48,475 bases of DNA, from positions 1 through 48,475 of the forward strand of contig CAYUNR010000003.1 of assembly GCA_964446295.1 (NCBI GenBank), given 5' to 3'. Both the position numbers and the translations under genes were made by a program. This DNA is from an uncultured Candidatus Finniella sp. (lineage in GTDB: Bacteria > Pseudomonadota > Alphaproteobacteria > Paracaedibacterales > CAITNM01). The notes under the pieces were generated by a model. It was not told the DNA's origin. It did no database searches and was given only the letters and a program-made list of their open reading frames with translations. Shown piece after piece: positions 16,029-22,192 of the stretch. Each line of letters opens with the position of its first letter. Positions within the stretch are counted from its first letter, which is position 1.

Positions 16029-16724
16029 CTAACTTAAGCCTGATTTTTTCAGGGTTCGTGCTATATCCGCCTCTTTCATTCCTAATGCTGTTTTTGCAAA
16101 ATGTGCAATGTATGCGTCTTTCTCTTCTTTTGTAGTGCGCGCTTGTAATGCATCAATGTTTGCTCCTAAAAGGTCCATATCTTTAAGCATTACCTTCAGG
16201 CTTGTATTTAATTGTTCAATAATTTTTTCACTTTGAGCAACCTTTGAAGTAAGTATGCCATGGAATTCCAATAGCTTCTGATGCTCATTAATATCTCTAA
16301 AATTTTCAGGAGCACCTGCTGCTAACATCGGTAGGGGCGTACTTTCATCTTCTCTGGTTAAATCTAATGCACTAAGAGCAAGCTCTAATGATGTGTCATC
16401 AACGTCCTCTTCTCCGCTTGTCAGAACCTTTTCTACATCGGTTTTTCCATGATAGAGATTAGTTTCAATCCCAATGATTTGTTGAGTTTTCCAAGTCTTT
16501 ATAACTTTTCTCTTTCCACGAATTTGCTCCATTAAATCAGTAATTTGACTTTTTGCCTCTTCAAGTTCTATTTCTAAAGCCGTATTTTCACTGCTTAACA
16601 CACTAATTTGTTGTGGAAGGGGTAACCTGCTTTCAGTATTGCTTCCATCTTCTGGGTATTTTGAATCACTTGCATTCACTATTGCTATTGCGGCAAATAA
16701 CGTCATTAAAAGTAGTTTTTTCAT
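16029..16724 (-). CDS. Secreted coiled-coil protein, leader-cassette family 1
   Basis: 231 aa with leader MKKLLLMTLFAAIAIVNASDSK. ATG start preceded by AAGGAAACAATAA. The body is heptad-like and E/K/L/Q-rich. Confidence 0.75.
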   Translation of the reverse strand: MKKLLLMTLFAAIAIVNASDSKYPEDGSNTESRLPLPQQISVLSSENTALEIELEEAKSQITDLMEQIRGKRKVIKTWKTQQIIGIETNLYHGKTDVEKVLTSGEEDVDDTSLELALSALDLTREDESTPLPMLAAGAPENFRDINEHQKLLEFHGILTSKVAQSEKIIEQLNTSLKVMLKDMDLLGANIDALQARTTKEEKDAYIAHFAKTALGMKEADIARTLKKSGLS

Positions 16725-16891
16725 TTATTGTTTCCTTAAGGACAGGTTTTTATCTTAAAATTGCGTGGATGGTTATCGCCCATGCAAATATTACGTAAGC
16801 TGTGTAGCGTATTATTGCTCAATTTGTCAAATTGATGTTTTTATTTTGTTAAAAGGCATGCCATCATATTTTTATGGGTGCAAAACAAGAA

Positions 16892-17482
16892 TTATTCTAA
16901 GCCTAACCAATCGTCAAACCCATCTAATTTTGCGATTCCTTGTTTGTCAAGAAAAGCTGCCACGTGCGGTGGCACATCGGAAAGCGTGTACAATTTGTCA
17001 TCAAAGTTTTGATAGCAATAGACAGTATATATCACACTTTTATTCCTAGATATAACTTCTTCTATATCATATATCTTAATAGCTTTGTTATCTGAATACA
17101 CTACAACATTAGGGCACATATAATACGTATTTCCTGCGTCTGCAACTGTATAACTTGTTCTTTTATATCTTGGATAGACAAAAATGGTTATGAAATCACG
17201 ATTCCATTCTTGGACTTCGTTCTTCTCAATTTTTGTCTCAAGCCCTACTAGCTGCAACTCCCACAACTCCAACAGTCTTGGGTCCCGGGTAGAATGCTTT
17301 TTTAAAAAAAGCATATCGTCTGGGTCTAGTATGTCACACACTTTTCTGTTCATGCCTAGTCGTAAGCTAGAAGCGGCTTCTACTGGTTTGCCGGTTGCCG
17401 CCCCATTAATCATTGCCGACATGGCAAGCAATATTAAAAGTAGTTTCTGCACTTGTTGGTTCCGATTCTTTATCTGATACAA
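16892..17482 (-). CDS. Secreted protein, leader-cassette family 1 (divergent 5-prime end)
   Basis: 196 aa. The TTG at 17482 sits in the conserved ATAATTG context, but the family-type leader (VQKLLLILLAMSAMINGAATG) begins at a GTG 30 nt downstream (17452). The true start is uncertain. Confidence 0.65.
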   Translation of the reverse strand: MYQIKNRNQQVQKLLLILLAMSAMINGAATGKPVEAASSLRLGMNRKVCDILDPDDMLFLKKHSTRDPRLLELWELQLVGLETKIEKNEVQEWNRDFITIFVYPRYKRTSYTVADAGNTYYMCPNVVVYSDNKAIKIYDIEEVISRNKSVIYTVYCYQNFDDKLYTLSDVPPHVAAFLDKQGIAKLDGFDDWLGLE

Positions 17483-17497
17483 TTATACACAAACTGG

Positions 17498-17546
17498 ATT
17501 CTTTGTCCCTGCGTGGCTCGCAATGACGCTTGGTAACGTCATTACG
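17498..17546. repeat. GTCATTGCGAG-type palindromic repeat
   Basis: Hairpin CGCAATGACG-(8 nt)-CGTCATTACG. The minus strand reads CGTCATTGCGAGCCACGCAGGGACAAAGAATCC, related to the unit at 43722-43756 and 48428-48462. Confidence 0.6.
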
Positions 17547-17566
17547 AGCTTGCAAGGCAGGCGTGC

Positions 17567-20137: not shown

Positions 20138-20162
20138 GGTGTTTTGATTTATTCTGCAATTA

Positions 20163-21020
20163 TCATTGAGTTATTGCACCAGCACCGCTGCTATTGAGAA
20201 TAGCCTTAAGCTTAGCATTTTCTCTTTTTGCTTCTGCCAATCTTTCTTTAAGAGCGGCATTTTCTGCATTTTTGGTTTCTATCATACCTATTACTCTGGT
20301 CAATTTCTCTTCTATAGTAGCCGCAGCTTGTGCGGATCGTGCTCTTAGTTCTTCCTGTATTTGACTTAAAGATTTGGTAAATTCTTGTTTCTCTCTAACA
20401 TTTTCTAGTGTCATCAAATTAAATTTTGTTAAATTCTCAAAATATTTTGCCTGCCACTCGTCCCTCTCGCTTTCTCCTTTCTTAAGATCTCTTATAACTT
20501 TTAGTATTACATTTCCCATATTTTTATCGGTGTCTCGGAACTTGAAACTGCAGCTTTTTATACTTAGTTCATCTGCTATCTCAATTAGACGTGCGCGTGA
20601 AGCAGTGCTTGAATAAAGCTGATCAATAATGTTCAAGCGCAGTGATTCTTGCGTTGCGCCAAGCTCAGGAAAATTTTCTGAGCAGTATATAAACTCCATT
20701 ATCGTCTCTTCTGGATGTGGCAGCGTTATAGTTTTATCACTAACATCTTCATCTGAAGAGAGTACGTCTAACGCTTTAGCTCTAATGAACTGGCGCATCA
20801 CCTCTTGTACCTCAACAGCCGATGGAGAAGATGCGCCGAATAGCGTAGCCATCCATTCACAGTGGCTTTTAAGGGTAAAAGTAAATTCACCTTTTGTGGG
20901 TACAGTAACTCCCCATGATAAGCCTATAGCTAGCTCATCAACTGGCGCAAAGCCACTTCCATCTGCTGCACGAATCATTACTGACGTTGCCAGCAACGTC
21001 ATCAAAAGTATTTTTTTCAA
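20163..21020 (-). CDS. Secreted coiled-coil protein, leader-cassette family 1
   Basis: 285 aa with leader MKKILLMTLLATSVMIRAADGSG. TTG start preceded by AAAGGAGACGATAA. The body is paralogous to 18303..19463. Confidence 0.8.
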   Translation of the reverse strand: MKKILLMTLLATSVMIRAADGSGFAPVDELAIGLSWGVTVPTKGEFTFTLKSHCEWMATLFGASSPSAVEVQEVMRQFIRAKALDVLSSDEDVSDKTITLPHPEETIMEFIYCSENFPELGATQESLRLNIIDQLYSSTASRARLIEIADELSIKSCSFKFRDTDKNMGNVILKVIRDLKKGESERDEWQAKYFENLTKFNLMTLENVREKQEFTKSLSQIQEELRARSAQAAATIEEKLTRVIGMIETKNAENAALKERLAEAKRENAKLKAILNSSGAGAITQ

Positions 21021-21077
21021 TTATCGTCTCCTTTATAGCAGGTCAATGAACAAATAATTTGATTGTACTTTCTGGGT

Positions 21078-21180
21078 TCCCGTTTTCACCGGGATGACAG
21101 CGCACTCACTTCTGTCGTTCCTGCACACACTTCTGTCATCCCCGCACTCACTTCTGTCATCCCCGCGTAGGCGGGGATCC
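21078..21180. repeat. Composite repeat: hairpin, 3 x 21-nt tandem repeat, terminal hairpin
   Basis: The first hairpin is TCCCG-TTTTCAC-CGGGA. It is followed by three 21-nt units at 21104-21166 (ACTCACTTCTGTCGTTCCTGC / ACACACTTCTGTCATCCCCGC / ACTCACTTCTGTCATCCCCGC). The last unit forms the hairpin CCCCGC-GTAG-GCGGGG followed by ATCC. Confidence 0.85.
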
Positions 21181-21226
21181 ACCAGATAGTCCAACAAAAT
21201 TAATTTCGGGTCTTGGGGCTTAGGCG

Positions 21227-22192
21227 CTATTGAGGTACGCCCAACCTCATCGTCCGATGATGTCTACGTCCATGTTTCTTTTTGCCCCTTAATGCTTTAT
21301 TCTCTTCTTTCAAAGCATAAATTAACTTGTTTTTTCGTTGGTCATCTTCAGTATTAAGGAATGCTAAATGGTTAATAACTTCGTTGTACTTTTGTACTTC
21401 ATCCTCTAATATTTCGATTTGAAAAAGTAATCTATCTCGCTTTTCCTGTAATTCACTATTCAGCGACTGACTTTCCAAGAACCTATATTCCCAAGAAGCA
21501 AGTTCTTTGGCCAGTCTTGCAACATGTGCTTCTAACTGAGAACTATGACTAGTCAACGTTTCAATCTCATGTGCACTTACTTCATGAAAGTCATTTAAAT
21601 CATGGGCTTGAGCTTCTAATTCAGCTGCTAATCTTGCCTTCTCTTTTTCTATGCTTCTTAATTCCGTTGTTTGCTTTTCTAAAGCAAATTCAGCTCTCTC
21701 TGCTGCCATCTGCAATTCATGCATAACTCCTTCGTGGGTAACTGCTGTTTCTGCTGCTTCTTGTTTAAGCTTTTCCATTGCAGTTTCTAGCGCTGTCTTC
21801 TCTTCTCTTACTCTTAGTAGCGTCTGAACAAGCATATCATTTTCTTGTCTAGATAAAATTAATGTCTCCTCTCTTGCTGTTAACGTACTGGTCAGTTCTT
21901 TATTCTTTGTTAGTAACTGATCGCGTTCAGTTGAAACTGTTCCAATCATACGGCGTGTATTGGTCAGTTTCTCCTGCGATGCTTGAAGTTGAGCTAAATG
22001 TTCTTGCTGCAGCGTTTCAATTTCTCTTAAATGCTGCTGTTTTAAACCGTCTATCGCATCACCACTGATTGCCGCACTACCCGCACGAGCGCGCCTTAAA
22101 ACATTATCCTCCGCTGGTGAAGAACTTCCATCCGCTGCCTCCATCACAATTGACGAACCTGTCAACAACAACACTGCTATTATTTTTTTCAA
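21227..22192 (-). CDS. Secreted long coiled-coil protein, leader-cassette family 1 (divergent)
   Basis: 321 aa with leader MKKIIAVLLLTGSSIVMEAADGSSSP. TTG start preceded by AGGGGATAATAA. Almost the whole body is heptad-like (E/L/Q/A/T-rich), with a basic tail KKKHGRRHHR. Confidence 0.75.
   Translation of the reverse strand: MKKIIAVLLLTGSSIVMEAADGSSSPAEDNVLRRARAGSAAISGDAIDGLKQQHLREIETLQQEHLAQLQASQEKLTNTRRMIGTVSTERDQLLTKNKELTSTLTAREETLILSRQENDMLVQTLLRVREEKTALETAMEKLKQEAAETAVTHEGVMHELQMAAERAEFALEKQTTELRSIEKEKARLAAELEAQAHDLNDFHEVSAHEIETLTSHSSQLEAHVARLAKELASWEYRFLESQSLNSELQEKRDRLLFQIEILEDEVQKYNEVINHLAFLNTEDDQRKNKLIYALKEENKALRGKKKHGRRHHRTMRLGVPQ

Follow-up and report, generated by a model that had tools for sequence, protein, structure and literature searches.

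Introduction

The prophage-borne erp genes of Borrelia burgdorferi (OspE/OspF/Elp, with their "upstream homology box", UHB) combine a leader and sorting sequence of single origin with a remaining open reading frame (ORF) of many independent origins and frequent recombination (PMC10016077; mature-part groups, leader origin and recombination are also treated in PMC12242104). At the vsp and vpma loci of Mycoplasma, the 5′ untranslated region (5′UTR) and the signal peptide are conserved and there is otherwise no significant homology (PMC2268961). Here we describe an array of genes of the same design, a member of neither system, in 48,475 nucleotides (nt) of DNA from Candidatus Finniella sp. (assembly GCA_964446295.1, contig CAYUNR010000003.1, positions 1-48,475, forward strand; hereafter "the window"). 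The array consists of seven successive minus-strand ORFs, g1 to g7, which lie within 16029-22192 and begin with a near-common leader. An earlier interpretation made from the letters of this DNA only (the "sequence-only reading") had placed all seven ORFs and quoted their leaders correctly. Its statement that no described family has such an organisation did not survive, the erp/UHB and vsp/vpma genes being close precedents. From the comparisons presented below, we think it probable that the array is a lineage-specific, recombining, birth-and-death family of predicted Sec-exported proteins built on a duplicated expression/export cassette.

By architecture only, and not by homology, the erp/UHB genes appear to be the closest match. 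Both sets comprise multi-copy exported proteins (exported by prediction in the array) with promoter DNA and leader in common, in both the leader is common to genes with dissimilar mature parts (unrelated groups in the case of erp), and both adjoin phage-derived genes, the cp32 prophage in one case and a head module of the gene transfer agent (GTA) type in the other. Unlike the array leaders, which contain no Cys and resemble signal peptidase I substrates, the erp products are lipoproteins with a lipobox Cys and a sorting sequence. The erp copies are alleles borne by different cp32 plasmids, whereas the array is tandem and chromosomal; its host is an alphaproteobacterial symbiont of protists, from a different phylum, and its proteins show no sequence relationship to OspE/OspF/Elp (no match in Pfam or NCBIfam). 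With the vsp, vpma and vlp genes of Mycoplasma, the array shares tandem clustering and a conserved 5′UTR and signal peptide. Those genes, however, are for lipoproteins whose cleavage motif is AAKC and whose mature regions are repetitive, and they are switched by an adjacent tyrosine recombinase acting on 5′UTR sites or by slippage in a promoter poly(A) tract; the window has no recombinase, inversion repeats, long tandem repeats or lipobox. Conotoxins and anuran skin antimicrobial peptides likewise join a conserved signal to a fast-diversifying secreted payload in tandem families. These, however, are eukaryotic genes with introns between the signal exon and the mature exon, and their payloads are no more than short peptides. 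They diversify by exon-level focal hypermutation plus selection, and not, as proposed for the bacterial array, by unequal recombination through a cassette.

The Holosporales that live as symbionts in amoebae and other protists are genetically intractable, and very little is known about their interaction with the host. In Holospora, a member of this order, periplasmic proteins of 89, 63, 39 and 15 kDa reach the host, being released during invasion, and a 5.4-kDa protein has a reported signal peptide (PMC5911502); the analogy is functional only, as the array proteins show no sequence similarity to these and no tandem array on a shared cassette is reported there. The array offers a compact, defined list of candidate exported proteins, whose interaction with the host can be tested by proteomics or immunolocalisation. 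It turns over fast and carries a recognisable DNA tag that can be tracked in metagenomes, and a comparison with related genomes reveals its recombination breakpoints directly. New here is the combination of non-lipoprotein Sec leaders (predicted), a chromosomal tandem array, a protist-associated alphaproteobacterium and a position beside a GTA head cluster. The design, a conserved expression/export cassette with interchangeable bodies, was previously known for the lipoproteins of spirochete prophages and the surface antigens of mycoplasmas and is now seen in an alphaproteobacterial endosymbiont; it is not a new principle, and no current idea is overturned.

A 5′ cassette of common descent

The segment from -150 to +90 of all seven genes was extracted and anchored on the start codon, and pairwise identity was scored in 15-nt bins. 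Mean identity is 0.77, 0.89, 0.72 and 0.64 in bins -15, 0, +15 and +30 (0.87, 0.97, 0.86 and 0.78 in the g3-g6 subset), falls to 0.48 at +45 and 0.31 at +60, and is about 0.27 beyond this point as well as upstream of -30, random-level identity being about 27%. Identity is thus high inside the cassette and ends abruptly past the predicted cleavage site, as the sequence-only reading had it. That reading had further described a similarity of about 50 nt continuing into the Shine-Dalgarno (SD) sequence; the similarity is real, but it covers about 83 nt, to which some 200 nt further upstream must be added for four of the genes. The common block reads AAAGGAGACGATAA-TTG-AAAAAAATACTTTTGATG(A/G)CGTTG(T/C)TGGCAACGTC..., and a degenerate 25-mer taken from it, TGAAAAARMTACTTTTRATGRCSTT, finds five matches in the window against 0.01 expected. 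A repeat search of the window returned an 83-nt family with six copies (g1 and g3-g7) and a 31-nt family that brings in g2. The constant parts of the cassette are a strong SD (AAAGGAGA), a spacer of 6 nt with TAA as its last three, a TTG, ATG or GTG start and about 19 signal-peptide codons.

Of 133 comparisons at leader positions that agree in amino acid, 93 show the same codon, versus 47 expected from local codon usage. This excess indicates that the leaders are homologous at the DNA level and are not convergent signal peptides. Nor does the cassette leader resemble those of unrelated Sec substrates of the same contig, seven of which were compared (the flanking genes h8 and h9, and those designated 28916, 30170, 39446, 43806 and 47093). 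A gene for a leucine-rich repeat (LRR) protein at 6357-7106, to which the same type of leader had been ascribed, is absent from the DNA repeat families, the likeness being confined to the protein: its product and that of g1 (16029-16724) both have A-SDSK right past the predicted cleavage site, encoded with different Ser codons.

The start codon is TTG in g3 to g7, ATG in g1 and GTG in g2, at a single aligned position 6 nt past the SD, and the same position switches between TTG and ATG in relatives. This alternation, seen in the window and in relatives, favours the aligned codon as the genuine start. The gene calls in public records start instead at an internal methionine, Met7 (P0001, for example, at M7), which would cut off the charged n-region. 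The inclusion of g2 in the set was justified, with the amendments that its start had to be reset to the GTG at 17452 and that its SD is decayed.

On inspection, the leaders display the features of Sec/signal peptidase I substrates, with KK in the n-region, an h-region ILLMTLLATSAMI and c-regions INA↓A, VNA↓S and IRA↓A; those of g5 and g7 are less canonical. No Cys, as in a lipobox for signal peptidase II, occurs in any of the seven leaders. Export of the products through Sec, with cleavage by signal peptidase I, is predicted. A more specific role for the leader can be envisaged, namely that it acts as a specialised targeting signal (as do signals of the YSIRK and ESPR type) that routes its cargo, the DNA similarity being a by-product. 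The leader protein is indeed strongly conserved among paralogs and genomes and is limited to one gene set, unlike the other Sec leaders on the contig, and Holospora releases periplasmic proteins, one with a reported signal peptide, into its host (PMC5911502). We find this fairly improbable as the explanation of the array, since the leader consists of generic n-, h- and c-regions with no extra motif, and conservation reaches the non-coding SD, spacer and promoter, making the conserved unit an expression module and not just a peptide. A targeting signal would also leave the breakpoints described below unexplained, and it is compatible with a duplicated cassette, not exclusive of it.

In g3, g4, g6 and g7, a run of seven A residues follows directly upon the TTG (TTGAAAAAAATA; 18115-18130, 19445-19460, 21002-21017 and 22174-22189, respectively). 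To judge from its sequence, it could be a slippage site. Such a run, in clustered genes with conserved 5′UTR and signal peptide as in vsp/vpma, brings to mind phase or antigenic variation of the Mycoplasma vsp/vpma/vlp type, in which few genes are on at once and are switched by inversion or homopolymer slippage. The window, however, holds no recombinase gene and no long inverted repeats, and all array genes are co-oriented, which makes Mycoplasma-like switching unlikely. Moreover, four of the genes have a promoter-like box of their own, the A run is broken in g1, g2, g5 and in relatives, and the bodies contain only trivial tandem repeats, none of them long. Overall we hold this explanation to be very improbable. 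An invertible element was dismissed because the window has no recombinase and no inverted repeats, and integron cassettes because it has no integrase and the repeats are 5′ expression modules rather than 3′ attC hairpins. A leader RNA hairpin, GACGTTG-TTGG-CAACGTC (+18 to +36), was also considered and rejected; it is perfect in g4 and g6, but RNAalifold yielded no consensus and pair counts were no better than those of shuffled sequences.

Upstream modules and terminators

In g1, g4, g5 and g7 similarity runs about 200 nt further upstream with 67-74% identity, through a box of sequence TTGACA-N17-CTATAT (CTAyAy type). The box fits the alphaproteobacterial sigma-70 consensus; it was not listed by a generic sigma-70 scan of the window, and it is called promoter-like for its conservation and for its fit to that consensus. 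The intergenic modules between g6 and g5 and between g5 and g4 are homologous over about 280 nt, which include the palindromic terminator of the preceding gene. The remaining genes, g2, g3 and g6, have only SD and leader in common with the others. Upstream from these lies an element resembling a miniature inverted-repeat transposable element (MITE) in the case of g2 and g6, and a terminator hairpin in the case of g3. We picture a repeat unit in which the 5′ module would be followed by a body that varies from gene to gene and, in most cases, by a terminator hairpin; the promoter-like box and 5′UTR are part of the module in four copies. The cassette would supply each body with transcription and translation signals and with a Sec/signal peptidase I leader. 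The modular 5′ cassette in front of dissimilar bodies that the sequence-only reading had proposed is recognisable in this layout, with SD, start and signal peptide shared throughout and the promoter in some copies.

Palindromes of the MITE-like "GTCATTGCGAGC...GCAATCCAG" type were found at 17490-17560, 21040-21190, 43722-43756 and 48429-48463. The last two, near the contig end, are an identical 35-mer.

The gene bodies

BLASTP comparison of the mature parts with each other gave nothing significant. The g4 and g6 products have a collinear block in common, F-x-F-T-L ... IIDQLY ... IE(A/I)AD, and g6 is 25% identical over 172 residues (E=1e-5) to a 390-residue protein, L4_390, from the related locus L004 (see below). 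These three proteins appear to make up one divergent, weak subfamily. The paralogy of g4 and g6 noticed earlier stands, the two being linked through the L004 protein. The description of the bodies as unrelated has to be weakened: for the others it can be said only that no similarity is detectable. Profile comparison with hhalign over 78 body pairs ranked G6-G390 (P=0.0014), G4-G5 (0.0028) and G4-G6 (0.034) as best, none of which survives multiple-test correction; the profiles are shallow, with one or two sequences each, and power is low.

Searches of the window proteins against Pfam, PHROGs and NCBIfam produced only generic coiled-coil noise for the array bodies, with weak matches of g4 and g7 to SMC-type coiled coils and of g1 to coiled-coil Pfam entries. 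The 230 N-terminal residues of g4, searched against 5.8e9 proteins, retrieved three proteins, g4 included. An exhaustive search with mature g2 in 1.84e9 representative proteins retrieved, apart from g2 itself, only two repeat proteins of eukaryotes, both spurious. The bodies of g5 and g7, and one of 118/121 residues found in relatives (a close variant in two assemblies), are as isolated as g2. Behind the signal peptide of g4, an AlphaFold2 model shows about 60 disordered acidic and Pro-rich residues, then a small helical domain of weak prediction, and then a single helix of about 170 residues; this helix (mature residues 193-361, predicted local distance difference test [pLDDT] score above 90) is the only confident part, and the model had no fold match in the PDB with Foldseek. 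The single-sequence model of g3 is of low confidence (pLDDT 52). A crude heptad scan was positive for g1, g4, g6 and g7, partly so for g3, and negative for g2 and g5, although the scores were no better than the extremes of shuffled sequences. The label "mostly coiled-coil" given to the array would apply only to g1, g4, g6 and g7, four products predicted to have long coiled-coil rods, and not to g2 and g5, which show none.

The frame-0 advantage in codon usage amounts to 0.41-0.65 bits per codon in the seven bodies as compared to 0.38-0.57 in conserved genes. With a frame signal this strong, the bodies can be considered real coding sequences native to the genome. The normal signal in every body also weakens the idea that they arose de novo from non-coding DNA.

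The locus in related genomes

Related loci were collected from Candidatus Odyssella-like assemblies by means of the cassette DNA pattern and of homologs of h9, the gene upstream of the array (they are designated L002, L004 and so on). Odyssella is classed in the Holosporales, Paracaedibacteraceae, and the bacterium of the window is itself best described as Odyssella-like. The cassette-pattern search found the cassette only in a Candidatus Odyssella sp. metagenome-assembled genome (MAG) and an unclassified alphaproteobacterial MAG. No match was obtained in a scan of viral contigs, and a leader protein search with a 45-residue alignment query listed 233 candidates, none with E<=10. In all data searched, the cassette is confined to the array locus.

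This locus is bounded by h9 upstream and a portal gene downstream, and the number of cassette genes in between is 0, 4 or 7 depending on the lineage. The interval in the window contains, in order from h9, h8, g7, g6, g5, g4, g3, g2 and g1. In L004 it contains a g5-like gene, the 390-residue g4/g6-like gene, g3 and g1, the last two frameshifted. In L002 and L006-L011 there is a g5-like gene, followed by the novel body of 118/121 residues, a g3-like gene (292 residues, disrupted in L002) and a g1-like gene. The interval is empty in L012 and L016-L018, where the portal gene comes directly after h9, and the outgroup L014/L015 has one unrelated gene on the opposite strand. Orthologs of both g1 and g3 are present in L002, L004, L008 and L009. 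No homolog of g2 was found outside the window among the genomes compared, g6 is absent in the relatives sampled, and g7 and h8 occur in the window only. The loci devoid of an array show no cassette remnant, even with up to 13 mismatches in 50 nt allowed. The flanks show a synonymous divergence (dS) of 0.15-0.36 between members of the ingroup, and of 0.5-0.9 between these and L014. The portal gene of L004, which has the array, differs from those of L016, L012 and L018, which do not, by a dS of 0.17, and from that of the window by 0.30. The patchy presence of the array therefore points to loss, or to exchange by recombination.

Several related loci show irregularities. The frameshifts lie at 3095-4520 in L004 (g1, g3) and 6661-7540 in L002 (g3-like) and may reflect real decay or assembly error; the portal, protease and h9 genes that flank them on these MAG contigs are undamaged. 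In L005 (3940-4480), an ortholog of g4 (92.7% DNA identity) is cut off about 107 nt past its start, where the 3′ flank of a gene for an alpha/beta-hydrolase takes over, by rearrangement or as an assembly chimera. In L008 (2586-3578), a transposase-like ORF of 330 residues, presumably IS110-like, directly follows the g1-like gene in the place where others have the portal gene. The upstream neighbourhood of h9 in relatives is rich in eukaryote-like or secreted genes; genes for ankyrin-repeat proteins and ORFans lie a few kilobases upstream of h9, beside a DEAD helicase gene, in L009 (1420-3222) and L014 (2353-4216).

Breakpoints at the cassette and mosaic bodies

Homology between relatives ends at the end of the leader in three places, in keeping with the recombination at the cassette that had been surmised. 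In the first, L002 and L004 are 93-100% identical from -240 to +63 of the gene that follows the g5-like gene, and 27-33% identical thereafter. Beyond +63, the body has 121 residues in L002 and 390 in L004; homology picks up again just past the terminator, 56 nt ahead of the next start codon. The window has a third body, that of g4, behind the same promoter and leader. In the second place, the element that precedes g2 in the window is directly upstream of g1 in L004 and L009, and the switch from g2-like to g1-like sequence falls inside the SD/leader. The position of this switch indicates that body, promoter module and leader of g2 together form a unit that is an insertion/deletion (indel) bounded by two leaders. 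The third is at the g5 position, where homology of the window to the relatives spans the upstream module and stops about 55 nt into the ORF, the bodies being 29-34% identical in a forced alignment.

Exchange is also apparent inside the bodies. The first 180 nt of g1 in L004 are 97-98% identical to L009, whereas the rest is 55-65% identical to L009 and about 94% to the window. A g4 relative from a Logan contig (P0002) has 85% identity in the N-terminal 250 residues and an unrelated C-terminal coiled coil, which shows that mosaicism extends beyond the cassette. Compared with L004, the window shows a dS of 0.06-0.07 in g3 and in the 3′ portion of g1, as against 0.30 in the portal gene next to them; compared with L009, it shows a dS of 0.3-0.67. 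Finally, the cassettes of g1 and g2 in the window have derived states in common (GGAA-C-AA in the SD, AAACTAC and TTTTAAT), none of which is seen in the orthologous cassette, that of g1, in L004 and L009. These shared states argue for a duplication or conversion of the g1 and g2 cassettes within the lineage. The comparisons thus delimit the modules and their common descent and reveal cassette-bounded indels and swaps, mosaicism and fast protein evolution.

These data bear on a simpler history, in which the genes are ordinary tandem paralogs: one ancestor was duplicated, the bodies diverged in place and the leader and SD were kept by purifying selection alone. The demonstrable relatedness of g4, g6 and L4_390 agrees with it, as do a ratio of nonsynonymous to synonymous divergence (dN/dS) around 1 in the bodies, leader features that track orthology, and a leader dS of 0.5-0.9 for g1, g5 and g7 versus other copies, old enough for strong divergence. 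Yet identity between the bodies is at the random level in the DNA, synonymous sites included, while the leaders of g3, g4 and g6 differ by a dS of about 0.2. Divergence in place also does not account for two loci that are nearly identical up to +63 and carry unalignable bodies beyond it, or for a g2 unit that is a leader-bounded indel, and the intragenic mosaicism implies frequent recombination. The diverged-in-place model may hold for the oldest paralog pairs but cannot explain the three breakpoint cases; as an account of the array we judge it unlikely.

Selection and the fate of the bodies

Values of dN/dS are 0.57-1.3 in the bodies (0.7-1.3 in g3), 0.3-0.5 in h9 and 0.05 in the portal gene, from which selection on the bodies appears to be weak or diversifying. 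One could accordingly regard the ORFs as decaying remnants or non-functional passengers of an unstable intergenic island. High dN/dS (0.6-1.3), the frameshifted copies in L002 and L004, the complete absence of the array from close relatives and the lack of homologs of the bodies all speak in that direction. Against it, SD, start and leader are conserved among paralogs and genomes, ORFs of 186-386 residues have been kept open in a region of 38% GC, the codon-usage frame signal equals that of conserved genes, and copy number reaches seven in the window genome. We consider this explanation highly doubtful.

A recombining family on a duplicated cassette remains the reading that we favour. As a direct repeat of about 80-280 nt, the cassette would offer homology for unequal crossing-over and gene conversion. 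Whole units made of body, terminator, next promoter and leader would be added, deleted or exchanged by such events, whose products are seen as the breakpoints and whose direction can be conjectured. Purifying selection on the bodies would be almost lacking, or the selection acting on them would be diversifying. That bodies are mosaic between strains and decayed in some genomes is the basis for invoking birth-and-death turnover. By analogy with Holospora, the products would most likely be periplasmic or released, at the protist-host interface or in the envelope; the host-directed effector or surface-coat role raised by the sequence-only reading is a candidate role.

A number of points weigh against this interpretation. 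Partial loss of function would also account for the dN/dS values near 1 and for the copies with frameshifts. The shallow profiles can barely exclude a very distant homology between bodies, and the absence of further cassette copies genome-wide rests on two strict DNA patterns and on incomplete MAGs. Leader dS between paralogs (about 0.2 within g3/g4/g6, 0.5-0.9 in other pairs) is weak support for gene conversion: the figures rest on about 11 synonymous sites, and low values could come from selection on the translation-initiation region instead of conversion. Gene-specific leader features, moreover, mostly track orthology between genomes, and their retention indicates that homogenisation of the leaders is not pervasive. 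The suggestion that gene conversion keeps the module homogeneous is only partly true, given the largely orthology-bound features of the leaders and their paralog dS of 0.2-0.9.

A bolder variant would make the cassette a standing platform for gene birth or capture, its alleles being shuffled between co-infecting strains, possibly via the adjacent GTA genes. Each duplication of the module by unequal crossing-over would expose the sequence that follows as a new exported protein. Such shuffling would account for array segments (dS 0.06-0.07) much younger than their flanks (0.30). We rate it as distinctly improbable.

Features and surroundings of the array

Table 1. Coordinates of the array genes, their 5′ modules and the flanking elements in the window
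Feature	Position	Strand	Remarks
g1	16029-16724	-	231 residues; ATG start; leader MKKLLLMTLFAAIAIVNA, then SDSK after cleavage; two heptad-like segments
g2	16892-17452	-	186 residues; GTG start aligned with cassette start; decayed SD (GGAACCAACAAGTG); globular-looking ORFan
g3	17567-18133	-	188 residues; TTG start; not coiled-coil
g4	18303-19463	-	386 residues; TTG start
g5	19675-19944	-	89 residues; TTG start; acidic; no coiled coil
g6	20163-21020	-	285 residues; TTG start; divergent paralog of g4 and of the 390-residue L004 protein
g7	21227-22192	-	321 residues; TTG start; heptad-like helix nearly throughout; basic C-terminus
h8	22387-23121	-	244-residue secreted ORFan with a different leader; between h9 and g7; window only
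h9	23266-23943	-	Conserved secreted Cys-rich protein with its own, different leader; upstream anchor of the locus
Portal gene, GTA/HK97-type	14400-15743	-	Downstream anchor of the locus
g1 cassette copy	16667-16749	-	SD, start codon, signal-peptide codons; 83-nt repeat family
g2 cassette copy	17382-17463	-	Decayed, 3-nt deletion; found via other repeat families, including the 31-nt one
g3 cassette copy	18076-18158	-	83-nt repeat family
g4 cassette copy	19406-19488	-	83-nt repeat family
g5 cassette copy	19887-19969	-	83-nt repeat family
g6 cassette copy	20963-21045	-	83-nt repeat family
g7 cassette copy	22135-22217	-	83-nt repeat family; most divergent, 60%
Promoter-like box of g1	16787-16851	-	Repeat family shared with g4 and g5 boxes
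Promoter-like box of g4	19536-19600	-	Same repeat family; kept upstream of the orthologous position in L002, L004
Promoter-like box of g5	19992-20056	-	Same repeat family
Upstream module of g7	22218-22299	-	67% to g5 module (19891-20052 aligned with 22139-22299)
Terminator-like hairpin between g4 and g3	18180-18199	-	
Palindromic terminator-like hairpin downstream of g5	19621-19650	.	Homologous to 20107-20137
Palindromic terminator-like hairpin downstream of g6	20107-20137	.	
MITE-like palindromic element upstream of g2	17490-17560	.	Same element upstream of g1 in L004, L009
MITE-like element upstream of g6	21040-21190	.	Three 21-nt repeats and a hairpin; stands in place of a promoter module

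Beyond the portal gene, on the same strand as the array, are genes for a protease (S78), capsid, connector and head completion (9874-14419). The resulting GTA/HK97-type head module (9874-15743) has no terminase nearby. Endosymbionts of the Holosporaceae/Holosporales carry GTA head clusters without a nearby terminase, under purifying selection (PMC9254644), and the module of the window, with its portal gene under strong purifying selection (dN/dS 0.05), matches these clusters. Units with promoter-like boxes and hairpin terminators of their own, abutting a GTA-type head module, have features of phage morons; the head module, however, is a conserved chromosomal GTA-like cluster and the array is outside it, between h9 and the portal gene. 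The remainder of the contig is ordinary chromosome (DEAD helicase, EamA, MFS, DsbD, COX3, tRNA-Val).

A second cluster of secreted paralogs, also on the minus strand, occupies 29136-34608 of the window. Its three proteins, of 348, 196 and 629 residues, have related leaders (MN.. F(Y) .. SK.L.L.C.L...GYSA), body motifs RDGxDSAIATxATEY and IRQIEAED in common and low-complexity regions rich in E, R and A. A separate gene pair shares its 5′ end, 30969-31045 being 83% identical to 31562-31638.

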